From Oribacterium sinus (GTDB lineage Bacteria > Bacillota > Clostridia > Lachnospirales > Lachnospiraceae): a stretch of 64,000 nt of DNA. How positions within the stretch are numbered: position 1 is the first letter of the stretch; each line of letters starts with the position of its first letter. The notes below the pieces were generated by a model. It worked only from the letters and a program-made list of their open reading frames with translations, was not told the origin of the DNA and did not search any database. The stretch is taken from contig NZ_CAUTEG010000003.1 in the NCBI RefSeq assembly GCF_963537195.1, forward strand, positions 1,890-65,889, written 5' to 3'. Below are positions 3,536 through 60,324 of this stretch, piece after piece. Made by a program: the position numbers and the translations under genes.

Positions 3536-3780
3536 GCTTATCCTTTCTTTTTGAGATGCAATACTGTTGAAATAAACTGCTTTGCAAAGCAAAGTGATTG
3601 ATTAATATACTGCTATAATTTGTACTTCTAGGCTTTATTGTAGCTTGCTCCCCTTGCTTCCACAAGCTTATCTTCCTAAGCTGATTTGTTGCTGGTTGAG
3701 TGTCCTTGTGTAGTTAATCTCCTCCTTAATCTGAAGCTTCGTCTATAGAATCACCCCAAAGCTCCTACTTTTGATTTGAC

Positions 3781-3908
3781 ATCAACATTTGGGAAGGATA
3801 AAATGTTGATGTATCAACATTTTAGAAAGAAAAAATATCCATTCATCAACATTTTAGAAGGTAAAAATATCCGTTTATCAACATTTTAGAATAAAAAACA
3901 TCAAGTCG
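3781..3908. repeat. palindrome plus three 32-bp tandem repeats (ATCAACATTTTAGAA core)
   Basis: ATCAACATTT (3781-3790) and AAATGTTGAT (3801-3810) form an inverted repeat. Direct units start at 3813, 3845 and 3877. Confidence 0.8.
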
Positions 3909-4012
3909 ACAATATTGGGGGAAGATTTCAAGCTTTTTATAGAACAGCCATAGATTTCCCTCACGAAATTTCATTCCAAAATGTGGCTATATTTGCAAAA
4001 GAGGAGCAAAGA

Positions 4013-5314
4013 ATGTTAAAGAGAAAAGTGATGAGTCAATTGTGGAATTGGAAAAAACAGGAAAAGAAAAAATCTTTATTGGTTCTTGGGGCAAGGCAGG
4101 TGGGAAAGACCTATGCCGTTCAAGCATTTGGGAAATCCGCGTATAAAGAGATGCTGTATATTAATTTCAAAGAAAGCAACTCCGATCGCTCTATTTTCAC
4201 CGGAGATTTAACTGTTGCTTCCATGATTACCGCCATGCGCTTTCGCTATCCCAACTTACAATTTATCCCGGGAGAAATCCTCATTTTCTTAGACGAAATT
4301 CAGGAGTGTCCGGAAGCTATCACTTCTTTAAAATTCTGGACCTTGGATGGGCAGTTCGATATTATCGCCTCCGGTTCCCTCCTTGGCATAGATTACCAAA
4401 GAGCCTCTTCCTATCCGGTAGGATATGTAGAGTATTTGCGAATGTTCGGCTTAGACTTTGAAGAGTTTTTATGGGCAAAGGGTATTCAGGAAGATCTGAT
4501 TTCTGATTTAAAAACTCTCTTTATAAGGAAGACACCGGTAGCCGAAGCTATTCATAATACCATGATGTCCTATTTACGAGAATATCTCGCCCTGGGAGGA
4601 ATGCCCGAAGTCTTGGCAAACTTTATGGAACATCAGGATTTTCGAATCGCAGATCAAATACAAAAAGAGCTTTTGATGGGCTTTCGTTATGATATTGCCC
4701 ACTACGCTCGGTCTGATGAAAAAGTCAAAGCGGAAAAATGCTTTTTATCTTTAGGAAGGCAAGTTCTGGACAAAGAAAATCATAAATTTCAATACAAGGA
4801 AGTGGAAAAAGGAGGAAGGGCACAGAAATTTTATTCCAGCATTGACTGGCTCTTTTCGGCAGATATGGTCTCCCTTTCTAAATTAGTGACAGACGTGCAG
4901 TACGATCTCTCCGACTATGCCAGAGAGGATTTTTTTAGAGCCTACACTACAGATTTATCTTTACTGATTGCCATGAAAGATTTCGGTTTGAAACAGCATA
5001 TTATCGAAAATACCCTCCTGGCCAATACAAAAGGAGGCTTATATGAATGCCTAATAGCGGATATGCTCATCAAAAAAGAACTCCCCCTTTATTTTTACAA
5101 AAACGAAAGTAGTAAAAAAGAAATTGACTTTTTAACACAAAAAGATGGAGAAATTTGGGCTATCGAGGTCAAAAGCGGACAGAGTAGAGCAAATTCTTTA
5201 AACCGGCTGATAAATCAGAAGCATGTTTCCAGAGCTTATAAATTTCATGACGGAAACATTGGCGAAGAAGGAGGCGTTCTATCTATGCCCCTCTATATGG
5301 CGATATTTTTATAA
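4013..5314 (+). CDS. AAA-family ATPase with DUF4143-type C-terminal domain
   Basis: Walker A GARQVGKT and Walker B FLDEIQ, in a COG1373-like architecture. Start refined to the ATG at 4013 after GAGGAG. Confidence 0.85.
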   Translation: MLKRKVMSQLWNWKKQEKKKSLLVLGARQVGKTYAVQAFGKSAYKEMLYINFKESNSDRSIFTGDLTVASMITAMRFRYPNLQFIPGEILIFLDEIQECPEAITSLKFWTLDGQFDIIASGSLLGIDYQRASSYPVGYVEYLRMFGLDFEEFLWAKGIQEDLISDLKTLFIRKTPVAEAIHNTMMSYLREYLALGGMPEVLANFMEHQDFRIADQIQKELLMGFRYDIAHYARSDEKVKAEKCFLSLGRQVLDKENHKFQYKEVEKGGRAQKFYSSIDWLFSADMVSLSKLVTDVQYDLSDYAREDFFRAYTTDLSLLIAMKDFGLKQHIIENTLLANTKGGLYECLIADMLIKKELPLYFYKNESSKKEIDFLTQKDGEIWAIEVKSGQSRANSLNRLINQKHVSRAYKFHDGNIGEEGGVLSMPLYMAIFL

Positions 5315-7059: not shown

Positions 7060-7227
7060 TGCTTCCCCTTTTCCGTTGTCCTTCAACTAATCTGTCTGTC
7101 CATCTCCGCAAGTGTTTCCTTAGGATAACAGAGAAAAACTTCAATGACAAGGAATTCTCCAAAGAATAAAGAGAATTTTAGAAACAAATAGGAGAAACTA
7201 ACGGGGCTATCAAAGGGACTTTCTATA

Positions 7228-8142
7228 TTAAGCCTTCTTTAGGAAGATATGCTCCAAAAATCTCAGGCAGGCATAGATGGTAAAGCCTGCGGCAATGATG
7301 GTTTCCAGTAAAACCACCGGCTGCATGAAGGCAAGGCTCATTCCCATTTTCCCTAAAACCATCACGCTTTGCTTTGTAGCAATAGCGGAAATAACGAAGG
7401 GGAAGGTGAAGGCTGCATAGCTTGGGTAGAAGGGGAGCTTCAGGAAGGAAATGCTCTTTACCAGGGCAAAAAGGTAAATCACTGAGGTTGCTGCCAGTAA
7501 GAAGAGTACAAATCCCTGATTCTTCTCCGCAAATGCCTGATTATAGCCGGCAGTGCAAAGAGCCATAGGTGCTGCATAGATCATCATTAAAGGCTTTGCA
7601 GGTTCCGGTACCGGCATTTTCAGATAACGTTTCGAAACCACCACCAAAAGAATCAGCAGGGCGATAAAGCCGAAGTAAAAGATTCCCTGTCCCAAAGCCT
7701 GCATTTTATAAGCAGGAGAAGTAAGGGATGCCACTACGATTCCCACATAAACGATGTACCATACTGTATGGACATTTTTCTCCTCAAAGTGTAAAACGTA
7801 GGTCTTGGTGAAATAGAGAAGTAAAAGAATCTGTAGCAGGATGGCTACACACCATAAGGGAAAGGCAATGCCCGGAACAAAGGGCTTTGCATACACGGAA
7901 AACAGCATTAAAGCCATGGGGAAAGTGGCGGTAACACCGGCGCCAATGGGATTGCTGAATTCTTCTTTGAGTACTTGCGGAAAGAAAATCGCCTTACACA
8001 GAAGAAGAAGGAGCAGTACAAAGGCTACTCCTCCAAAAATCAGGCGAATCCCCTCACCGTAGGACTGTAATAAATTTCCCAAAGCCGCCATTCCCAAAAT
8101 CACACCGGAAATAGCCAAGGGCACTCTTTTGATTTTTTCCAT
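7228..8142 (-). CDS. TDT-family (TehA/Mae1/SLAC1-like) transporter
   Basis: 304-aa polytopic membrane protein with an N-terminal PLAISGVILGMAALGNLL signature. Confidence 0.8.
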   Translation of the reverse strand: MEKIKRVPLAISGVILGMAALGNLLQSYGEGIRLIFGGVAFVLLLLLLCKAIFFPQVLKEEFSNPIGAGVTATFPMALMLFSVYAKPFVPGIAFPLWCVAILLQILLLLYFTKTYVLHFEEKNVHTVWYIVYVGIVVASLTSPAYKMQALGQGIFYFGFIALLILLVVVSKRYLKMPVPEPAKPLMMIYAAPMALCTAGYNQAFAEKNQGFVLFLLAATSVIYLFALVKSISFLKLPFYPSYAAFTFPFVISAIATKQSVMVLGKMGMSLAFMQPVVLLETIIAAGFTIYACLRFLEHIFLKKA

Positions 8143-11078: not shown

Positions 11079-11243
11079 ATGTATCGTAGTGTAAGAAAGC
11101 TAAGCACCGGCAGTAATAAAAGTAATGACGGTAATGAAAGTAATGGCTGTAATGCTATAATAACGGTAATAAAAGTAATGACGGTAATGAAAGTAATGGC
11201 TGTAATGGCTGTAATGACTGTAATGAAATACAAAAAGCGTTGA
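11079..11243 (+). CDS. candidate 54-aa repeat-encoded small protein
   Basis: ATG at 11079 after GGAG. Translation is MYRSVRKLSTGSNKSNDGNESNGCNAIITVIKVMTVMKVMAVMAVMTVMKYKKR. The TGA overlaps the RBS of the DJ-1 gene. Below the track cutoff. Confidence 0.3.
   Translation: MYRSVRKLSTGSNKSNDGNESNGCNAIITVIKVMTVMKVMAVMAVMTVMKYKKR
11112..11228. repeat. 13 tandem copies of a 9-bp unit (GTAATGNNN), organised as two ~54-bp blocks
   Basis: Read directly from the sequence. Block 11112-11154 is repeated at 11166-11208. Confidence 0.9.
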
Positions 11244-11880: not shown

Positions 11881-12217
11881 GGTTTTCTAAAGGATAGGGA
11901 TGAAATGAGTGGTAATCTAAGCCCGATACTTGCAAAATCTGATGAAGTGAAGAACTGTAAAAATCAATATGTGAAGCGAATAATGCAGTATGGGTCTATA
12001 ATAGGGGCAATCTGAGCCCGTCAGTACTTACTGAAAGCGAGCAAAGCGAAGCTTGAAGTTAGTACTGCTACGAAGGCGAAGTTAGCGGGAGCGTGCCACG
12101 ATTATAGACCCATACTGCATTTGAGCGCATCCTTATGATAAGTACAGTCCTTCAATACATTGGATTAGGCTAGCGAAAGCGTGCCACGAATTTCATCCCT
12201 ATCCTAATTAGAAAACC
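11881..12217. repeat. composite (nested) rod-like hairpin repeat, units A and B
   Basis: Outer arms 11881-11906 and 12190-12217 are complementary. Inner unit 11982-12121 has perfect 21-bp arms. Core boxes GGGGCAATCTGAGCCCG and GTTAGCGGGAGCGTGCC are present. Confidence 0.85.
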
Positions 12218-12223
12218 GTAAAT

Positions 12224-13399
12224 TTATGAATTCGCCTTCTTTGCTTCCCCTCTTTCTATCATCCGATCCACCTGTAACTTAATCAAACCGGCGATGGGGG
12301 CTGCCAGGAAGATTCCCAAAACTCCCCCCACTGCGCCGCCGATAATTAAAGAGATCATTACCAGTAGAGGATGGATATCGATACTGTTGGAAAGCAGTCT
12401 GGGGTTAATCACATTTCCATCAACGGTCTGAATCGCAAACAGGGCTAAGACAGCCGGTAATAATTTAGAAAAATCCCCGTAAAGAGTACACACTAAAATG
12501 GTTGTTCCATAGGCCACAAAGGGACCCACATAGGGTATTAGATTTCCGATTCCGGTAAGAATTCCTATGGCTACGGCATAGCGTACCCCTATAAGACTTA
12601 GGCTAAAACTAACCAAAATAGCCATAATGATGCCGTCAATCATCTGTCCACGGATATAACCGGAAAAGGCTCTATCCGCATCCTTTAGAAATCCGCGAAA
12701 GGCTAAAACTCTCTTTTCCCCCAAGATCAGGCGAAAAATTCTTTCCCAATATAGCGCAATCTTTACCCCATCTGCCAGAAAATAAATAGAAAAAATAATA
12801 CCAAAGAGCAGAGTGCCTATCAGGCTTCCCATATTTCCCACGGAGGATATGAAATTACTGCCCAGGTTTTGTACAAAGCTTAAAAGCTTTGCTAAAAAAG
12901 TTCGTATTCCCTCCTGCAAATCATTTCCCGCAATAGGAATCTCTGAAACTCTTTGGTTCAAATCCTCATAAAAACTTTTTAAAAGAAGCAGTAGGCTCTC
13001 CAATCCCTTGGCAAAATCTTCTCCCTGAATCAGCTGAATATTTTTGGTCAGGACGGATACAAAAAGAGAGGCAAGCAGTACCAGGGAAAGTAAAATCAAG
13101 AGATAGCAAAGCAGAATGCCCAGGTTTCTCCGAAGCTTCTCTTTCTTCTGAAAAAGAGGAATTTTCCCCAATACTCTCTCCAGCAAAGAACAGAGAGGAC
13201 TGAACAAATACGCCAAAGCAAATCCCAAGAGCAAAGGAGAAGTCACTTGGGACAGCCAGGAAAAGTGCCTTGTCCATAATGAGGGAATCCCTTCCAGATG
13301 ATCCACCAAACGGCTTCCCAGATGATACAGGAGGGCCGTCAGCAATACATATACCGAAATCATCAGGTATTTTTTATTCCATAAATCTTTCCAATTCAT
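12224..13399 (-). CDS. AI-2E family transporter (UPF0118/PerM)
   Basis: 391-aa polytopic protein with family-typical topology and a C-terminal GLIKL segment. Confidence 0.85.
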   Translation of the reverse strand: MNWKDLWNKKYLMISVYVLLTALLYHLGSRLVDHLEGIPSLWTRHFSWLSQVTSPLLLGFALAYLFSPLCSLLERVLGKIPLFQKKEKLRRNLGILLCYLLILLSLVLLASLFVSVLTKNIQLIQGEDFAKGLESLLLLLKSFYEDLNQRVSEIPIAGNDLQEGIRTFLAKLLSFVQNLGSNFISSVGNMGSLIGTLLFGIIFSIYFLADGVKIALYWERIFRLILGEKRVLAFRGFLKDADRAFSGYIRGQMIDGIIMAILVSFSLSLIGVRYAVAIGILTGIGNLIPYVGPFVAYGTTILVCTLYGDFSKLLPAVLALFAIQTVDGNVINPRLLSNSIDIHPLLVMISLIIGGAVGGVLGIFLAAPIAGLIKLQVDRMIERGEAKKANS

Positions 13400-24190: not shown

Positions 24191-24229
24191 TTTTTCTCCC
24201 CTTTTCGTCTTTCTTTTTTCTCTACTACT

Positions 24230-24305
24230 CTATTGATTTAGTCTTATTCTACTGATTTAGTCTTATTCTACTGATTTAGTCTTTTTCTACTGATTTAGTC
24301 TTACT
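24230..24305. repeat. four tandem 19-bp repeats (CTACTGATTTAGTCTTATT)
   Basis: Units start at 24230, 24249, 24268 and 24287, between the SBP and permease genes. Confidence 0.9.
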
Positions 24306-24310
24306 CACTT

Positions 24311-24344
24311 GGAAAATTCACTCTATTGCATTAGTGAATTTTCC
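24311..24344 (-). promoter_or_regulatory. intra-operon stem-loop
   Basis: Perfect 12-bp stem GGAAAATTCACT / AGTGAATTTTCC with a 10-nt loop. No U-tract follows. Confidence 0.6.
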
Positions 24345-30611: not shown

Positions 30612-30720
30612 GAAAACCTCCTATCAGGATTTTCAATATTCCCCATAATATCATGCTTTCCGCAGGAGATACAAGAAAAGAGCATCTTATCTCTTTACAA
30701 ATTTTATAATTTTTTCTAAG

Positions 30721-30940
30721 GAAGAAAGGGGCTGTAATAAAATGGAAAAGGATAAATAAGTTTTGGAGGCATAGGTCTAGTTGGGGGCACGCTCTCGCTA
30801 ACCTCGCCTCCTAGCAGTACTAACTTCAAGCATCGCCTTGCTCGCTTTCAGTAAGTACTGAGGGGCTCAGATTACCCCCTTTTAGACCTATGCCACCAAA
30901 ACTTGCACCAAAATCCGATTTTATTACAGCCCCTTTCTTC
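30721..30940. repeat. rod-like hairpin repeat, unit C (~220-bp near-perfect palindrome)
   Basis: Outer arms 30721-30743 / 30918-30940 are perfect (23 bp). Second arms 30758-30779 / 30883-30904 have 1 mismatch. Core boxes are in reverse orientation. Confidence 0.9.
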
Positions 30941-31034
30941 CTTTTCCTCTTCTCCCTGTTCTTTTTTCTTCCTTTATGATATATTTAAAAGGTTGCATTT
31001 GTTATATTTTTTAAGACTAATGAAAGGAGGGTTC

Positions 31035-32392: not shown

Positions 32393-33303
32393 TAAAAATC
32401 ATCTTCTTTGATATCGACGGCACTCTTCGTCCCTTTGAAACCGGAATCATTCCGGAGGATAGCAAGGCTGCCGTCAGAAGAGTGCAGGAGGCAGGAGTGC
32501 TTTGTGCCATTGCCACCGGAAGGCACTGGGTGGAAATCTATAATGAAGGCTTGGTGGAGGATATGTATTTCGATGCCTTTGTCACTTTAGACGGAGGCTA
32601 TGACTACATCCTGCATCCGGAAAAGGCAAGACCTGTTTTTCAAAAGCAGGGAGCCAAAAAACCGAAGGATTACCACTTTCTGATTGATGAGGCAGGGCTT
32701 CCCCTGCCTTACTTTGACCCCAAAAACGGAGAGGTACTTTTACAAGAAGCCATCCACGGAGAAATGGTGGAAAATGTCCTTGCTATGGCGGAAGAAGAAA
32801 GCTTCCCTATTCTGTTTTTGGAAGAGAGACGGCTCTACGCCAACTTTGTAAATGACGCCTTGCTGCATTGTCTTTCGGAAATCAAATCCGGAATTCCTCC
32901 CATCCTTCCTTTGTCAGAAGCCAGGAAAAATCCTCTTTTTATGCTGATTCCGGTGCTTAATGAAACACAAGTGAAAGAGCTGGAAAGAAGAATTCCGGAC
33001 TGCCATTTGGTTCGCTGGTCCGACGGTCTATCCTTTGACGTGACCAAAAGAAATATTTCCAAGGTTTCAGGCATAGAAGCTATTTGTAAGGCTTTAGGCA
33101 TTCAAAGAGAAGAATGTGCCGCCATCGGAGACGGCTGGAATGATGTGGAAATGCTCTCCCATGTGGGAATGGGTATCGCCATGGGCAACGCCAAAGAAGA
33201 ATGTAAGGCTGTAGCAAACTACATCACCACCCCAATCCTGGAAGGCGGCCTACCCCAGGCAGTGGACTACATCCTTGAATATAACGAAACGCAGAAGAAG
33301 TGA
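32389..33303 (+). CDS. Cof-type HAD-IIB family hydrolase
   Basis: FFDIDGTL motif I, and GDGWNDVEML motif IV. Confidence 0.88.
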   Translation: MIKIIFFDIDGTLRPFETGIIPEDSKAAVRRVQEAGVLCAIATGRHWVEIYNEGLVEDMYFDAFVTLDGGYDYILHPEKARPVFQKQGAKKPKDYHFLIDEAGLPLPYFDPKNGEVLLQEAIHGEMVENVLAMAEEESFPILFLEERRLYANFVNDALLHCLSEIKSGIPPILPLSEARKNPLFMLIPVLNETQVKELERRIPDCHLVRWSDGLSFDVTKRNISKVSGIEAICKALGIQREECAAIGDGWNDVEMLSHVGMGIAMGNAKEECKAVANYITTPILEGGLPQAVDYILEYNETQKK

Positions 33304-33409
33304 TCTTTTCAAAGCGAATATCCATCAGCTTTCGCGCAGTATAGCTTGTATTAAGGGAGACACACTTGCCTCCCCACCTACACGCTAAGCATAAATTTTA
33401 AAAGAAATA

Positions 33410-33623
33410 CAGAAGAAGTGATCTTAGCAAGGCGAGTATCCATCAGCTTTCGAGCAGTATAGCTTGTAATAAGGGGCAATCTGAGCCCGCGGGTTCTTGG
33501 CTTTTGTTTTTTAAAAGCTTAGAACCCCTGCGAGGCGAGGTTAGCGGGAGCGTGCCCCTGTTACAAGCTATACTGCGCGAAAGCGATTTCGGATAATGCT
33601 TACCATTCATCACTTCCTCTGCG
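33410..33623. repeat. rod-like hairpin repeat, unit D
   Basis: Arms 33446-33469 / 33561-33584 (24 bp, 1 mismatch). Outer CAGAAGAAGTGAT / ATCACTTCCTCTG. Forward-orientation core boxes. Confidence 0.85.
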
Positions 33624-37411: not shown

Positions 37412-37440
37412 ATCGCTCAGACTTGAAAGCGCTGCACTTC

Positions 37441-37615
37441 GCTTGCGCTGGAGTTACGAATCGCAACTCAACTTTGCTTGCACTGGAGTTATAAGTCACA
37501 ACTTAATTTTGCTTGCACTGGAGTTATAAGTCACAACTTAATTTTGCTTGCACTGAAGTTATAAGTCACAACTTAACTTTGCTTGCACTAATTATGAGTC
37601 GCGGCTTAACTTCTC
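37441..37615. repeat. five tandem 35-bp repeats (GCTTGCACTGGAGTTATAAGTCACAACTTAATTTT)
   Basis: Units start at 37441, 37476, 37511, 37546 and 37581. The first and last units are diverged. Confidence 0.9.
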
Positions 37616-37694: not shown

Positions 37695-38414
37695 ATGGAA
37701 AAAGAGATTCAGATTGTTCGGGAAAATATTCGTAAGGCATGTGAAAGGTCCGGAAGAAAGCCGGAGGAGGTACTGCTCATAGGGGTTTCCAAAACAAAAC
37801 CCTACGCTGCTGTGCAGGAAGCCTATAGCTATGGTATTCGGGACTTTGGAGAGAACAAGGTACAGGAAATTCGGGATAAGTTTGCTCTCTTGCAGGAGGA
37901 CGCCCTTTTACAAAAGGAAGCTCCTTCTTTTCATATGATTGGTTCTCTCCAAAAGAACAAGGTAAAATATCTTCCCGGGAAGGTAAAGATGATTCATTCT
38001 ATTGACTCCCTTCCTTTGGCTTTAGAGGTGGAAAAGGAATACGCCAAGAAAGAGGAAATTGCCTCCGTTTTATTGGAAGTCAATGTGGCCAGGGAGGAAA
38101 GTAAGTCCGGCTTCTTTTTAGAAGAGGTGGAGCAGGCTTTGGAGGAATGTAAATCCCTCCCCCATGTCAAGCTCTGCGGTTTGATGACCGTTGCTCCCTT
38201 TACGGCGAATCCGGAGGAGAACCGGGTTCATTTTCGGGCATTAAAAAATCTCTTAACAAATATGCAAAAAAAATTCCCCGCCCTTCCCCTTAAGGAACTT
38301 TCCATGGGGATGAGCGGAGATTATGAAGTAGCCGTCGAAGAAGGGGCTACCATGGTTCGTGTCGGCTCCTTTATTTTTGGGGCACGGGACTATGGAAACG
38401 CCCATAAGTCCTAA
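37695..38414 (+). CDS. yggS: YggS-family pyridoxal phosphate homeostasis protein
   Basis: VSKTKP (PLP lysine), GENKVQE, and HMIGSLQKNKVKY. Confidence 0.92.
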   Translation: MEKEIQIVRENIRKACERSGRKPEEVLLIGVSKTKPYAAVQEAYSYGIRDFGENKVQEIRDKFALLQEDALLQKEAPSFHMIGSLQKNKVKYLPGKVKMIHSIDSLPLALEVEKEYAKKEEIASVLLEVNVAREESKSGFFLEEVEQALEECKSLPHVKLCGLMTVAPFTANPEENRVHFRALKNLLTNMQKKFPALPLKELSMGMSGDYEVAVEEGATMVRVGSFIFGARDYGNAHKS

Positions 38415-47235: not shown

Positions 47236-47769
47236 CTAATGTATTGAAAGCATTTTCTTGACCTCTTTCAAAACCGGAACTTCCCTTTGGGCAATCAGCC
47301 TTCCCAGCTTTGTATTACTGCATTTTTCATATTCCTTTATGGCTTCTTCATAGCTTAGCTTCAAGGTTTCCATGTGAAAGTCTCGGATTTCATAGGGCAT
47401 CAAATTCTTTTCCCCAAAGGCACGGACTTTACACAAAAAATAATGGTTAATGTTGTGCCGATGAACATGGTTGTAATAATCACTGACTATCCCAATTTCT
47501 TGGAGGATTTCCACCTCGGCACCCAGCTCTTCCTTTAGCTCTCTTTTGATAGCCGTCTCTAAGCTTTCTCCCTTTTCCACTCCGCCACCGGAAGTTTCAA
47601 TCAAGGTGGCTTTTCCGAAAGAATCATCCCTATGAATTCTCACAAAATAGAAATTCTTCTCTTCATCAAAAACAATGCCCCGGGCAATCTCTCTGTCATG
47701 GTCAATATATTCAAAGGGAAATTCCCTATCCTGTAGCCTTAGGTTCAATTTACTTTCCTTAGATATCAT
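47236..47769 (-). CDS. NUDIX hydrolase
   Basis: Nudix box GGGVEKGESLETAIKRELKEELGA. The ATG overlaps the RelE stop. Confidence 0.88.
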   Translation of the reverse strand: MISKESKLNLRLQDREFPFEYIDHDREIARGIVFDEEKNFYFVRIHRDDSFGKATLIETSGGGVEKGESLETAIKRELKEELGAEVEILQEIGIVSDYYNHVHRHNINHYFLCKVRAFGEKNLMPYEIRDFHMETLKLSYEEAIKEYEKCSNTKLGRLIAQREVPVLKEVKKMLSIH

Positions 47770-48034
47770 TTTGATAAATATCCCTCCTATGCCCTATCCC
47801 CAATACCAGAACAATTACTTTATCCTCCTGAATTTCCGCAATGATTCTATAATCCCCTACTCTATATCTCCATTGTCCGCTTCTATTAGCTGTTAAGCCC
47901 TTTCCATGTTTCCTGGGATCTTCACAGCCTTCTAAGTTCTTTCTAAGCCAAGCAACAATAAGAGAAGCTGTGTACTTATCCAGCTTTTTCATCTGCTTTA
48001 ATGCCTTATCGGAAAACACAACCCTAAAACTCAT
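47759..48034 (-). CDS. relE: RelE/ParE-family type II toxin
   Basis: 91 aa, ...WRYRVGDYRIIAEIQEDKVIVLVLGIGHRRDIY. Confidence 0.88.
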   Translation of the reverse strand: MSFRVVFSDKALKQMKKLDKYTASLIVAWLRKNLEGCEDPRKHGKGLTANRSGQWRYRVGDYRIIAEIQEDKVIVLVLGIGHRRDIYQNDI

Positions 48035-48252
48035 CCTAAGCCCAGCTCTTTCTCCACCTCATCAAGAGTATAGGTAATAGGATTTTCCCTATATTCTGCT
48101 ATGGCCTCTTTATAGGCCTGTAAATCATATTCCTCTTCAATATGTTCAAGAACTGAGCGTCTAAGCAATTCCGAAACACTAATTCCATTCATTTCCGCAT
48201 ATTTTTTGAAAAGCATAGAGTCTGCTTCATTTAACCTTAAAGAAATCGTCAT
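48031..48252 (-). CDS. ribbon-helix-helix antitoxin (RelB/DUF6290-like)
   Basis: 73 aa with an ISLRLNEAD beta-strand start. ATGA overlap with relE. Confidence 0.75.
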   Translation of the reverse strand: MTISLRLNEADSMLFKKYAEMNGISVSELLRRSVLEHIEEEYDLQAYKEAIAEYRENPITYTLDEVEKELGLG

Positions 48253-49280: not shown

Positions 49281-49661
49281 AAGGAGCTATAAAATCAAAA
49301 AAATTTTCTAAGCAATATAGGTCTGAATTGGGGCATGCTCTCGCTAGCCTCGCCTTCGCAGTACAGGACTGTAGAATGATAAAAGGCTACGCTTCGAAGC
49401 TGTATGGATATGAAATCGGGCACGCTCCCGCTAACCTCGCCACGTAGCGGATACTAAGCGAAAAACACAGTACCTGTGTTTTCGCAAGTACCGACGGGCT
49501 CAGATTGCCCTTATTATAGCCCCACACTGTATCATTCGATTCAATTATTGATTTTACAGTCCTTCACTTCGCCGGCCTTTCGCAAGTATCAGGCTCAGAC
49601 TACCCCATATTCAGACCTATATTGCCGAAAATTCTTTACTATTTTGATTTTACAGCTCCTT
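49281..49661. repeat. composite (nested) rod-like hairpin repeat, units E and F
   Basis: Outer arms 49281-49300 / 49642-49661 (1 mismatch). Second arms 49312-49328 / 49609-49625 are perfect. The inner core with its flanks spans 49401-49533. Confidence 0.85.
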
Positions 49662-49704
49662 TTTTCATCCTACCCATTCAAAATAGTTTTTCGCAAAGAG
49701 ATAT

Positions 49705-49915
49705 AAAAGGGGTTGTAAAACAAAAGAACAGCGTATATGCATAATAGGTCTGAAAGCGGGGTAATCTGAGCCCGCGGGTACTTGCGAAAAACAAATGTAA
49801 TGCTGTTTTTCGCTTAGTACCCCTGCGATGGCGAAGTTAGCGAGAGCGTGCTCCGGTTTTAGACCTATTAATGCATATACGAAAGCTTGACTATTTTGAT
49901 TTTCACAGCCCTTTT
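49705..49915. repeat. rod-like hairpin repeat, unit H
   Basis: Arms 49732-49751 / 49861-49881. Outer imperfect arms 49705-49725 / 49894-49915. Forward-orientation core boxes. Confidence 0.85.
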
Positions 49916-49919
49916 AGAT

Positions 49920-52412
49920 CTACTTCTTCAAATATCCGTAAAAAGCATTATGCACCTTCTCATATCTGGCGATAGCTTCTTCTCTACTGATGTTTCTGGG
50001 TATGCTGCTTCCTCCTAGGGTATATACCGTAATAAAGCTATTGTTGTAGCCGCTGATTAACTCCCATTGATCCTCCATACGAATCATCAGAGGATAGCCC
50101 TTGCCCACATAGTAGAGGGCAGCGTGCAGATCCATACCATAAAGATTTAGAAGCACGCCGTTATCATAGTCCATAGCTCTTCGAAGCTCCGGGATTTGGG
50201 AAACAAAATTGCTGATTGCCTCTTCCTGAATCTTCAGGTTAGCGGTATTGGGACGGTCTGTTCTATTCCAAACAATCCGCTCCTTCTGATCCACCACATA
50301 ACCGAACTGGTCATAAATCTTCTTATAGGCCGCCTCCATGGTGGAGAACTCTCCCTGATAATGCCCCAGGCTATAGGCGGAGAAAAGTATATTCTCTTCC
50401 TTGGTTTCTCCCGGAAGCTCAATAGAGCCTGCCTTTTCAATAGAGAACTTTTCCGGGTAATGCAGACTAAACTGGCTAACCGCCTTACCTACCATGGGAA
50501 GGTACTGCAGTTTTCCGATATTTCCCAGAACCTTGGATTCCAAGGCAATCTTTCTTTCATCTTTGATTTCTTTGTTGGAAAGCAAACTGTCCTTCCCCAC
50601 ATACTGATATTCCCCGTCCTGCAGCTGGTATTCATCAAATCGAAGCTGATTTCCTTCCAGACTGAAATTTGCAAAATACAGGCCATCCTTTTTGTAGGAA
50701 AGCTTGGTTTTCATGTCTTCCCCAACTATGCGAATCTCCGATACCGGCACTTCTCCCTGAGGATTCCAAATCTGATCCTTATCACTATCCTGTAAGCCGT
50801 AGAGGAAATCCTCCCCCAGAAAGCCGATTACCTTCAGTCGTTTTCCATCTTCGGAAATGCTCAAATTCTTATCTCCGTGGAGATTTCTAAAGGCAATTTC
50901 TCTGTGCAATTCTCCGTCATTGTTCTTTTCTCCGTAAGCAATAAATTGCTTACTGCTACTGGAGGCAAAATCATTTTCCGAAAGTCCGGTAGCCAGCGTA
51001 ATGACCTCGAAGCTGTTGGTGTCCACCCCATAGATACTGCCGGCAAAGAAAATGTAGAACATCCTATTGTCCGCATAGTAGGAAAGATTTTGAATATTTT
51101 CCTCCAGCTTTTCCTTACTGGCCTTTAGAGGCAGGAAGAAATTCTCCACCACCGTATTTTCCGAATTGTCATAGGTATAAAAGACAATGCCGGTATAGCC
51201 CTCGTGTCGACCTCTTCGAATATAGCCGTATACCAGAAAATCCACATCCCCGTTGGTGTCCACACTCAAAATATGAATGCCGTGGGTAAAGCTCTCCTTC
51301 TCCACCGACTTCTCCCCCTCGTAATAGGAGAAAATCCGGTTCATATTGCCCTTTCCCTCCCCGTCGGCACGGTAAAGGGTATTCTTATCGGTAAAGGCAT
51401 AGAAATTTTTAGTAGCGGATTGCAGGGCCTCAATATCGCTCTTTTCCCCCACACCCAGTAAAATCTTTTTATCCTTGTAACGATAATTCTGTCCGTCAAA
51501 AAGCTCCTTGGTTCTTCGGTCAAAGTCCATCAGGAAAATTCTTTGGGGATCATATCGCATCACATAGTTATCTTCATTAAAGAAACGGTGCACATTACCG
51601 TCCTGATCCGTGGCTCTGGAGGCATACTGGATTTGCACTAATGCCATGGTACCGTCCAGCTCCTTCAAACGAATCTCCGGCTCCCCGTCCATTTCCATGC
51701 CGCTGTCTCCCCAGGTTATCTGCTGGAAGGAGGAATGCAGATTCACATGGGCAAGAGAACTGTTATCCATGGTATCATCACTTTCCAGATAAGTGCTAAG
51801 GCTCTTGGCCTCCGATTTGGAAAAGCTCTTTCTGGTAAAATCCTCCGCAAGACTCAGAACTTCCTGTCCCATATCCTCCTTCCCCAGTAAAACGCGGGTA
51901 TAGTAATAGACGCTGCTTTCTCCCAGGTCCAGTCGTAGACGAAGAAGGTACTCCTTTCCTTCCTTCATCAAGTTTTGGATAGGAAGGATAATGTGTACCC
52001 TTCCCCCTTCCTCCTGTAAGCTTCCTTCCTGGTCCTTTTCCAAAAGCTCCGTCCCATCCAGGGAACGAATATCATAATGCACAGACTTAGGGGCGGACTT
52101 TCCCTCCTCCAAAATCAACTCACACTGCCGGTTTTCCGGAAGTAAGGTCAGGCTGTCCCGCACAAAGACATCATCCATTTCCTGCAAATAGCCGTAGAGA
52201 GGATTGATTTCTTTTCCGGAGGAAAGCACATGAAGCACCGGTAATTTGCTTTTTCCCATGTTGGCATAAATTCTATTGTTTTGATCCATGGAACGATAAG
52301 AATGGAAGAAATAAAAAAGCAGAGCGACAAAAAAAATGCCGCCCAATACCAAAGCTCTGCTTCTTCTTTTATTCCAAAACTTCTGTTTACTTTCGCCTAG
52401 TCGTTTTAACAA
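49920..52412 (-). CDS. large membrane-anchored hypothetical protein (830 aa)
   Basis: One N-terminal TM segment and a long extracytoplasmic region. No family recognised. Confidence 0.7.
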   Translation of the reverse strand: MLKRLGESKQKFWNKRRSRALVLGGIFFVALLFYFFHSYRSMDQNNRIYANMGKSKLPVLHVLSSGKEINPLYGYLQEMDDVFVRDSLTLLPENRQCELILEEGKSAPKSVHYDIRSLDGTELLEKDQEGSLQEEGGRVHIILPIQNLMKEGKEYLLRLRLDLGESSVYYYTRVLLGKEDMGQEVLSLAEDFTRKSFSKSEAKSLSTYLESDDTMDNSSLAHVNLHSSFQQITWGDSGMEMDGEPEIRLKELDGTMALVQIQYASRATDQDGNVHRFFNEDNYVMRYDPQRIFLMDFDRRTKELFDGQNYRYKDKKILLGVGEKSDIEALQSATKNFYAFTDKNTLYRADGEGKGNMNRIFSYYEGEKSVEKESFTHGIHILSVDTNGDVDFLVYGYIRRGRHEGYTGIVFYTYDNSENTVVENFFLPLKASKEKLEENIQNLSYYADNRMFYIFFAGSIYGVDTNSFEVITLATGLSENDFASSSSKQFIAYGEKNNDGELHREIAFRNLHGDKNLSISEDGKRLKVIGFLGEDFLYGLQDSDKDQIWNPQGEVPVSEIRIVGEDMKTKLSYKKDGLYFANFSLEGNQLRFDEYQLQDGEYQYVGKDSLLSNKEIKDERKIALESKVLGNIGKLQYLPMVGKAVSQFSLHYPEKFSIEKAGSIELPGETKEENILFSAYSLGHYQGEFSTMEAAYKKIYDQFGYVVDQKERIVWNRTDRPNTANLKIQEEAISNFVSQIPELRRAMDYDNGVLLNLYGMDLHAALYYVGKGYPLMIRMEDQWELISGYNNSFITVYTLGGSSIPRNISREEAIARYEKVHNAFYGYLKK

Positions 52413-52438: not shown

Positions 52439-52584
52439 CTTCCTATGCCCTAAGGCTTTTTTCTATCTCTGAATCTTTCCTAAGTCCGGGGCTTTTTCCT
52501 ATCTCTGAATCTTTTCTAAGTCTGGGGCTTTTTCCTACCTCTGAATCTTTCCTAAGTCTGGGGCTTCTTCCTATAGCCTAAGGC
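52439..52584. repeat. 36-bp tandem repeat (three full units plus partial flanks)
   Basis: Units at 52454-52489, 52490-52525 and 52526-52561. Each repeats the last codons and the TAG stop of the DUF4446 gene. Confidence 0.9.
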
Positions 52585-53058
52585 CTCTTCCAGAGCCAGC
52601 TTTTCCTCCGCTCCAAGCTCCACGGAAGTGCTGCCTTCCTCCACCTCTTTAATATAGAGGAAGCCCCCTTCTTTGGCATGAACAGAATTAAAGATAAAGC
52701 CGCTGTTATCATAATTCAAAATCGCTAGGGCAAAGGAGAGATTTCCTCCCATACCGCCATAAGCATTATAGCGAACGATACCCCATTTTTGGAAGGAACG
52801 TCTGATATTCTTATGCAAAATCTTAAGCATTTCCCGCTGTTCTTCTTCCAGGTCCTCCAGCTTTTCCACATGTCTCTGCAGCTCGATAAAATAATCCTCC
52901 AGAGTTTCCGCATCCTTCCCCCGCATAAAATAATCATACTGGCGATAAAGCTTTTTATACTTGGCCTCTGCCTTCAGAGCGAAAAAGAGAGAAATGAGCG
53001 AAATTAATGTGGAAACCAGTACGAAAACCAATTTACCATGTTGTAGCAATACTTCCAT
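52552..53058 (-). CDS. DUF4446 family protein
   Basis: N-terminal TM segment and a VRYNAYGGMGGNLSFALAILN core. Sits in the conserved position downstream of parB. Confidence 0.75.
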   Translation of the reverse strand: MEVLLQHGKLVFVLVSTLISLISLFFALKAEAKYKKLYRQYDYFMRGKDAETLEDYFIELQRHVEKLEDLEEEQREMLKILHKNIRRSFQKWGIVRYNAYGGMGGNLSFALAILNYDNSGFIFNSVHAKEGGFLYIKEVEEGSTSVELGAEEKLALEEALGYRKKPQT

Positions 53059-60262: not shown

Positions 60263-60324
60263 AAGCAATAGAGGTCTGAAATCAGGGTAGAACTAACTCT
60301 CCCTATTTCAGACCTCTATTGCTT
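60263..60324. repeat. miniature hairpin related to the rod-like repeat arms
   Basis: Perfect 20-bp arms AAGCAATAGAGGTCTGAAAT / ATTTCAGACCTCTATTGCTT around a 22-nt centre. Confidence 0.8.

Follow-up and report, generated by a model that had tools for sequence, protein, structure and literature searches.

Proteobacterial repetitive extragenic palindromic (REP) sequences, together with the REP doublets forming hairpins (REPINs) and the bacterial interspersed mosaic elements (BIMEs), are high-copy extragenic palindromes which are concentrated between convergent genes, show compensatory changes in their hairpins and consist of mosaic units. No target duplication accompanies them, and the substrate is presumably a single strand in folded form; REPs are GC-rich, imperfectly palindromic units of 20-40 nt with a conserved GTAG-type head, and REPINs are inverted doublets of them. 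The BOX elements of Streptococcus pneumoniae are modular. Miniature inverted-repeat transposable elements (MITEs) possess, by definition, conserved terminal inverted repeats and target duplications; MITEs such as Correia/nemis, ERIC and RUP are often located at gene 3' ends and co-transcribed, and can alter mRNA stability (PMC3184786). SPRITE of S. pneumoniae is a rho-independent-terminator-like repeat of ~105 bp, and bcr1 of the Bacillus cereus group is ~155 bp long, is flanked by 5-bp direct repeats and is demonstrably transcribed (PMC3184786). Here we describe seven copies of an undescribed hairpin repeat of ~200 bases, found in a stretch of 64,000 nt from Oribacterium sinus (the window, i.e. 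the whole DNA analysed); the repeat is genus-wide and lies scattered behind Oribacterium genes. As to its kind, it is filed under the small palindromic interspersed repeats; it belongs to no named family. In its behaviour it resembles both MITEs and REPINs, and bcr1 more than either.

According to our best reading, which we hold with a probability of roughly 0.6, the repeat is an old, non-autonomous palindromic interspersed element (MITE/REPIN/bcr1-like) which now serves as a terminator-like spacer. Each unit carries two conserved boxes: the right box GGCGARGYTAGCGRGAGCRTGC has 6 matches in the window, where 0 were expected from 100 shuffles, and the left box GGGGYAATCTGAGCCCG has 7 matches at ≤2 mismatches, where 0.23 were expected. 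A hidden Markov model (HMM) of the core located five complete and two split cores (Table 1) and nothing else in the 64-kb window. The split cores are shells, each of which encloses one complete inner unit (11881-12217; 49281-49661). This inventory agrees with the sequence-only reading, which had listed seven core-bearing units at four loci and a miniature copy at a fifth. Units in both orientations had been noted as well, and the five whole cores indeed run +,-,+,-,+; the stated preference for convergent gene 3' ends applies to three of the four core-bearing loci, the unit at 30718-30943 being located between divergent gene starts. The 62-nt miniature (60263-60324) could be confirmed as well; the second arm GCAATAGAGGTCTGAAAT and both ends of helix P1 (AGGGTA...TCCCT) are preserved in it, and its core is gone.

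In order to characterize the fold, 108 distinct simple units were aligned, which gave a consensus of 39 pairs. Of the cells in these pairs 95.5% are paired, compared with 82% for shuffled partners and ~35% for slid partners, and 28 of the 39 pairs show double changes, i.e. changes on both sides. The complementarity of the arms within each copy, as seen by the sequence-only reading, is thus borne out. The conserved core of ~100 nt is strand-asymmetric and forms a three-way junction on the strand beginning GGGGYAAUCUGAGCC, with the left box at the 5' side. P1 pairs GGGGYA with UGCCCC; at its Y:G position, 72 copies have C:G and 34 have U·G. P2 starts with an R:Y pair, a bulged U, a C:G pair, a U:R pair, tandem sheared G·A pairs and GCC:GGC, the last being formed by GCC from the left box and GGC from GGCGA. 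The R:Y pair (alignment columns 42 and 121) is always either A:U (97 copies) or G:C (11); the U:R pair occurs as U·G (66) or U:A (42); and the tandem G·A/A·G is present in 107 of 108 copies. Further covarying pairs follow, then GUAC/GUAC, and P2 is capped by one of three types of apical hairpin, of which type A consists of short stacked stems with G·A/G·A steps between them. The third arm is a GC-GNRA-GC mini-hairpin with the loops GGGA (69 copies), GAGA (38) and GAAA (1). This corrects a detail of the sequence-only reading, which had paired CCCG with CGGG across the boxes: the CGGG of the right box sits in the mini-hairpin, and the loop variants GAGA and GAAA cannot pair with CCCG.

The complementary strand turns these junction features into C·A and U·C mismatches. 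When folded as RNA, the left-box strand exceeds its complement in stability by 5-11 kcal/mol in all five complete cores of the window; with DNA parameters, it is favored by 1.4-4.4 kcal/mol in four of them and disfavored by 1 kcal/mol in the fifth. The long arms extend the junction to a rod of 200-230 nt, and every unit folds in this way, with energies for whole units between -94 and -162 kcal/mol (-94 kcal/mol and z = -9.5 for unit 49705-49915). By eye, the junction contains neither the hammerhead core CUGANGA...GAAA nor a K-turn bulge. The conserved feature is probably this single-stranded fold, more likely as RNA than as single-stranded DNA (ssDNA).

Core and arms differ strongly in their conservation. 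Between copies, identity is 91% in the left box, 75-79% in P3, 94% in the right box and 53-57% in the arms, the value of the left box being inflated by a search pattern that allowed ≤3 mismatches and that of the right box by the retrieval of the copies with this very box. Despite their low identity, ~91% of the arm positions are paired within copies. A similar picture emerged from the nucleotide diversity at one orthologous site in 9 O. sinus strains: the left box has a value of 0, the apical hairpin of 0.019, the right box of 0.044 and the arms of 0.07-0.12, as compared with 0.05 in the adjacent intergenic DNA and 0.012-0.036 in coding DNA. At this site the constraint on the interior equals or exceeds that on its surroundings, whereas the arms diverge about twice as fast as the neighboring intergenic DNA and nevertheless retain their pairing. 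Fast arms around a constrained interior are the reverse of the pattern expected from a transposase binding the termini. Note that divergent yet complementary arms could stem from palindrome correction or gene conversion just as well as from selection. On the left-box strand of the arms, G·U pairs exceed A·C only weakly (~1.6:1), which locates the strand asymmetry in the core; selection on the arms at the mRNA level was rejected because this excess is weak and independent of the direction of the neighboring gene.

With bcr1 the repeat shares that it is non-coding, is interspersed in a genus- or group-specific manner in Firmicutes, occupies different positions in different strains and maintains a single-strand fold by compensatory base-pair changes. 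It differs from bcr1 by its lack of a detectable target duplication, by a core forming a three-way junction within a long rod and by its nested layers; there is no sequence similarity. Correia/nemis, ERIC and RUP are alike in size (100-230 bp), inverted termini and long stem-loop folds, but in Oribacterium the termini are most variable, the interior is most conserved, and duplications were not detected. In contrast to REPs and REPINs, the two boxes have different lengths and sequences and neither is the inverted form of the other, a unit is five times as large, and the three-way junction carries its GNRA hairpin on one side only. Given that there are neither detectable target duplications nor an inverted doublet of one short unit, the family is placed outside both MITEs and REPINs. 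Palindromes derived from IS200/IS605 would be expected to show a strong bias in orientation relative to the replication fork, in keeping with activity on the lagging-strand template, whereas the Oribacterium units alternate (+,-,+,-,+). SPRITE and BOX are likewise small structured repeats behind genes of a Firmicute of the human upper airways; however, they show no sequence relation, and the Oribacterium repeats are long rods with a junction rather than a short terminator hairpin, with layers that are nested rather than arranged in a row.

The distribution of the repeat was determined by an exact scan for the right box in one genome per species. Among the matches listed are more than 111 stretches from at least 13 Oribacterium genomes, which answers the question raised by the sequence-only reading of whether copies exist beyond the window; genomes similar to O. 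sinus contain up to ~17 stretches each, O. parvum ACB1 at least 3 and O. asaccharolyticum ACB7 at least 4, all of which are lower bounds. The original proposal of a structure under selection, of a palindromic mobile element, or of both is supported by this spread over the genus and by a covariation of arms and core helices beyond the controls. One viral contig matches; a phage or plasmid origin was discarded, as this is the only such contig and 0 plasmid or phage records were hit. Rfam 15 gave 0 matches at gathering thresholds for the entire window and for 7 loci of a long form (including ribozymes, HEARO and IS605-orfB RNAs), and permissive Rfam searches returned chance matches of microRNA models or nothing. 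Known ribozymes and mobile-element RNAs are ruled out by the absence of Rfam matches. Full-text literature searches brought up no description of the repeat in Oribacterium or of its boxes, so that the failure to assign it to a known RNA or REP family persists after searches of Rfam 15 and the searchable literature. A retron msr was also considered, as Ec86 shares AAUCUGAG and UUAGCGAGAG; given the opposite order of motifs, the different structural role and the lack of a reverse transcriptase nearby, this was judged a coincidence.

With respect to genes, 47 of 107 clusters are located between convergent, 54 between co-oriented (tandem) and 6 between divergent genes, with stop codons adjoining the units. 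In 74% of the clusters the 3' end of the unit points towards the end of an opposite-strand gene. Pairs of units are arranged head to head in 7 cases; tail-to-tail or tandem pairs were not found among the clusters. The outer ends consist of an A-run and a GC-rich stem on one side and of the stem and a T-run on the other (AAAAGGRGCTG.../...CAGCYCCTTTT); at least 5 T within 8 nt occur on each strand in 18 of 36 ends and on both strands in 14. A -10-like TATAAT precedes the core in some subfamilies only, and an internal promoter was rejected, since the scan gave a single weak match to the consensus. GC skew is negative across the entire window, and a run of minus-strand open reading frames (ORFs) at 52500-63000 matches the usual order near the origin; jag was identified, and mnmE, mnmG, rsmG and parAB are putative assignments based on ORF order and size. 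Judging from skew and gene order, the window lies directly beside the replication origin, on one side of it and under one fork direction. Under this single direction the window units show no replication-strand bias.

Units are frequently nested, with up to five layers. Inner units are always oriented as their shell and are located at a homologous junction, ...GCGAAGTG|AAGGACTGT ... ACAGTCCTT|CACTTCGC...; one genome has the same two-layer composite, in its entirety, at two loci, and the numbers of left and right layers are often unequal. Homologous junctions, the recurring composite, unequal layer counts and the tandem expansion of half-units weaken, without rejecting, the idea that self-targeted insertion into the apical loop caused all nesting. 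Repeated self-targeting accounts for the data no better than does a small number of founding events with a subsequent spread of composites and slippage between layers. The inner unit 49365-49564 is a recombinant, as its two arms come from different subfamilies. Within a genome, the best paralogue identity is 0.74-0.89, which argues against a recent burst. A second module of ~110 nt with four hairpins (GGACAGACTTTTC..GAAAAGTCGTCC, CAACTTCCGAAGGAAGTTG, CTTTGCGAAGCAAAG, TGAGCAGTGG..CCACTGCTCA) lies between P3 and the right box in 12 copies, among them 5 of the 7 from O. parvum and O. asaccharolyticum. It occurs inside units of L012, L014, L015, L016, L031, L036, L050, L073, L087, L093 and L103 and once alone (L036:2230-2390); its last hairpin shows compensatory changes, and Rfam gave no match for the module.

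The comparison of single sites between strains and species reveals how the repeats change. At the rsmA site, the convergent genes of another Oribacterium species overlap by 12 nt and no unit is present. In L148, one unit constitutes the whole 206-nt spacer, starting 2 nt after one stop codon and ending 3 nt before the other; other strains contain two simple units head to head, extra layers are found in the left unit (window) or in the right unit (L116), and whole segments are inverted between inverted copies. At site 3, strains differ by 0-3 tandem copies of a 118-nt 5' half-unit. The sulfatase-like ORF comprises 601 aa in the window and 541 aa in most O. sinus strains; due to the loss of a TAA in a T-run, it reads 60 extra residues from the repeat (33443-33623). 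In other strains, site 1 has been reconstructed from different units, and the C-terminus of the AI-2E transporter is altered as a result. At site 7217, at least 9 other O. sinus strains carry a 193-nt unit that is diverse in sequence; the window has lost these 193 nt by a deletion between microhomologies (AGTC) at the hairpin base. Deletions, inversions and changes of layers are the differences seen within O. sinus, and no new insertions.

Two side observations concern these loci. Depending on the strain, the AI-2E transporter consists of 391, 393 or 403 residues (window 12224-12260, L142-L146), with a different end where the repeat cluster was rebuilt. Beside rsmA, a ParE/DUF6290 toxin-antitoxin pair is encoded (window 47759-48252; L112-L123), and a PIN/MazE pair exists at the rsmA locus in some strains and species only.

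How might such a repeat have been dispersed? Conserved interior, variable ends, no detectable target duplication and a strand-specific fold suggest, taken together, that a folded single strand may be recognized, and they speak against a cut-and-paste DDE transposase binding the termini. That we deal with a classical MITE, whose terminal inverted repeats AAGGRNCTGTRAAA... are bound by the DDE transposase of a related full-length insertion sequence elsewhere, is therefore improbable, although several features are reminiscent of one. Terminal inverted repeats do exist, as AAGGRNCTGTRA and its complement are found at the outer ends of the 36 outermost elements, where they are semi-conserved, and on inner units; complete inner units are bounded by AAGGACTGT/ACAGTCCTT; and size, copy number and intergenic location fit the published description (PMC3184786). 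However, flanking direct repeats are not in excess: for the 36 elements, the longest word shared by the flanks has a mean length of 3.1 compared with 3.3 after permutation, and words of ≥5 nt occur in 9 of 36 elements compared with 5.7 expected (p ~0.09), which would be compatible with decayed duplications, as the copies are old and their ends fuzzy. The termini are the least and the interior is the most conserved part, which is the opposite of what transposase binding predicts. In ~0.8 Mb around the copies, there is no insertion sequence with such ends, and no protein gene recurs in these flanks (8-kb stretches around copies), as the sequence-only reading had already stated for transposases and other ORFs near its own copies. 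Clustering all ORFs of ≥120 aa from 123 loci in search of a partner gene yielded orthologue sets only, a Transposase_mut fragment in L134 is without related ends, and none of the ORFs beside copies in the 8-kb stretches is a gene for a REP-associated tyrosine transposase (RAYT, Y1 HUH), which in REP/REPIN systems is present in a single copy with repeats on its flanks. Hardly probable at all is a scenario in which the arms are foreign to the element, because a core of ~100 nt enters the loops of existing hairpins, e.g. of terminators, or because insertion copies its flank in inverted form. It would explain why arms differ between copies yet pair within a copy, and it is in line with the great diversity of the outer arms, some of which are unlike the consensus, and with units at terminator positions ending in A-run, GC stem and T-run. 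The flank AGTCCCTTTG at site 7217 even seemed to predate the unit, when the empty site was compared with L033. This site is, however, a derived deletion, the filled and diverse state being found in at least 9 strains; and the arm motif GAAACGCAGAAGAAGTG of site 3, which overlaps a gene end, recurs, at an unrelated locus, in the two arms of another unit and is thus borne by the element. On these two grounds, a copying of the arms from the target or from pre-existing hairpins was rejected. Moreover, the outgroup state of site 4 has overlapping genes without any hairpin, and arms evolving about twice as fast as neighboring intergenic DNA suffice for the divergence.

A further alternative, somewhat unlikely in our view, is a functional family of structured RNAs, either a cis-acting 3'-end element or a small RNA, with selection on the junction, e.g. 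as a site of protein binding or processing, and with dispersal as a secondary matter. Features typical of RNA motifs are all found on one strand of the core, namely an invariant GNRA loop varying at N and R only, G·A pairs in tandem, wobble pairs of the U·G type and a pair that covaries perfectly between A:U and G:C; the strand asymmetry of the fold energy is greater under RNA than under DNA parameters; diversity at the orthologous site is lower in left box and apical hairpin than in the adjacent intergenic DNA; and O. parvum and O. asaccharolyticum (at least 3-4 matches each) mostly contain the longer form with multiple hairpins. An RNA function is difficult to reconcile with an orientation that is not fixed relative to the adjacent gene, with the lack of a conserved promoter (TATAAT being restricted to some subfamilies), with shells that persist despite the loss of the P3 helix and with a right-box diversity of 0.044, which is not below that of neutral DNA. 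Dozens to hundreds of copies are also atypical of a trans-acting RNA. More speculative, and rather improbable, is the notion of a new class of bacterial mobile elements in which the three-way junction is the functional part and which move as a folded single strand, either as RNA copied back into DNA, similar to short interspersed nuclear elements (SINEs) or retrozymes, or as ssDNA handled by an unrecognized HUH-type enzyme of Firmicutes. If this were true, the junction would be the recognition or catalytic module of an enzyme, homing would be directed to hairpin tips and gene ends, and the four-hairpin module inside some copies would be a second passenger of that sort.

We thus prefer the reading as an old palindromic interspersed repeat with a terminator-like role. 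Past mobility is suggested by the dispersal of the copies and by the outgroup site without a unit, and a role as terminator-like element or insulator by position and end sequences. The family would have spread in the past to spots directly behind stop codons, chiefly between convergent genes, where ends consisting of A-run, GC-rich stem and T-run would allow the repeat to behave as a two-way terminator-like spacer. Mobilization may have involved a folded single strand, namely RNA, or ssDNA as in the case of HUH/RAYT-type enzymes. The copies would by now be old and their present change would mainly be recombination, by which layers are gained or lost, segments between head-to-head copies are inverted, half-units are duplicated in tandem and hairpins promote deletions. 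Several findings weigh against this reading. A fresh insertion with a clean empty site was not found, the one "empty" site of the window being a secondary deletion. In 74% of the clusters the nearest gene reads the complement of the strand with the favored fold, which sits awkwardly with a simple role in the 3' untranslated region. Half of the ends of the 36 outermost elements lack a good T-run, and a simple terminator scan calls none of the rods, whose "loop" of ~190 nt exceeds the limit of the scan. The right-box identity is, as mentioned, raised by the mode of retrieval. Finally, the matches listed, all from Oribacterium except for one unclassified Lachnospiraceae metagenome-assembled genome, do not prove a restriction to the genus.

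These repeats are of consequence for annotation, as they form the whole spacer between many Oribacterium genes and reshape the C-termini of proteins, e.g. those of the sulfatase-like and AI-2E transporter genes of the window. They are hot spots of inversion, deletion and tandem expansion among strains of a common oral bacterium, and they probably disrupt metagenome assemblies, since several loci end inside a copy. Their conservation pattern, a conserved RNA-like junction with free-running arms, is opposite to that of a MITE, which makes the family a good test case for the long-standing question of whether bacterial palindromic repeats are kept by selection on a single-strand fold or by a mobilization machinery of their own. 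The family is also a concrete candidate for a new structured RNA motif that might be included in Rfam.

Table 1. Units of the hairpin repeat, their parts and related remnants in the window (positions refer to the 64,000-nt stretch).
Feature	Coordinates	Strand	Core (HMM)	Boxes, arms and ends	Position
Remnant site	7217..7228	-		only last 10 nt of unit left (AGTCCCTTTG)	
Two-layer composite	11881..12217	+	split, 11909-11951 with 12167-12187	degenerate shell: left box GTGGTAATCTAAGCCCG 11909-11925, right box GGATTAGGCTAGCGAAAGCGTGCCAC 12163-12188	adjoins AI-2E transporter stop at 12224
Inner unit of composite 11881..12217	11950..12152	+	12003-12098	left box 12004-12020; right box 12075-12100; apical hairpin type A	
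Simple unit	30718..30943	-	30784-30878	right box 30784-30808; left box 30862-30878; apical hairpin type A	between divergent gene starts
Tandem extra 5' half-unit	33283..33400	+		arm and degenerate mini-loop GGGAGACACACTTGCCTCCCC	
Simple unit	33401..33623	+	33472-33558	left box 33473-33489; right box 33534-33558; apical hairpin type C	arms encode last codons of HAD hydrolase gene and 60-aa tail of sulfatase-like ORF
Two-layer composite	49281..49661	-	split, 49329-49361 with 49562-49606	shell right box 49329-49354, left box 49590-49606; complete inner unit enclosed	3' end 6 nt past rsmA stop codon
Inner unit of composite 49281..49661	49365..49564	-	49417-49512	right box 49417-49441; left box 49495-49511; ends AAGGACTGT.../...ACAGTCCT	
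Simple unit	49705..49915	+	49758-49854	5' arm 49705-49757; left box 49758-49774; apical hairpin type B at 49775-49829; right box 49830-49854; 3' arm to 49915	3' end 4 nt from stop of convergent 830-aa gene
Miniature	60263..60324	.		second arm pair and P1 ends, core deleted	between jag and putative mnmE

Apart from this family, the window contains several other repeats. Upstream of ORF 3983-5314, a 32-nt unit (CATCAACATTTTAGAAGG.AAAAATATCC) is present in three copies at 3780-3898, and a run with a 9-nt period (GTAATGNNN) extends over 11095-11234. An intergenic tandem array at 24207-24320 consists of five to six copies of the 19-nt unit TATTCTACTGATTTAGTCT. Five head-to-tail copies of the 35-nt unit TTTGCTTGCACTGGAGTTATAAGTCACAACTTAAT (37438-37612) lie just upstream of ORF 37695-38414, and three copies of a 36-nt unit (52454-52574) are located between the ORFs 49920-52412 and 52552-53058.

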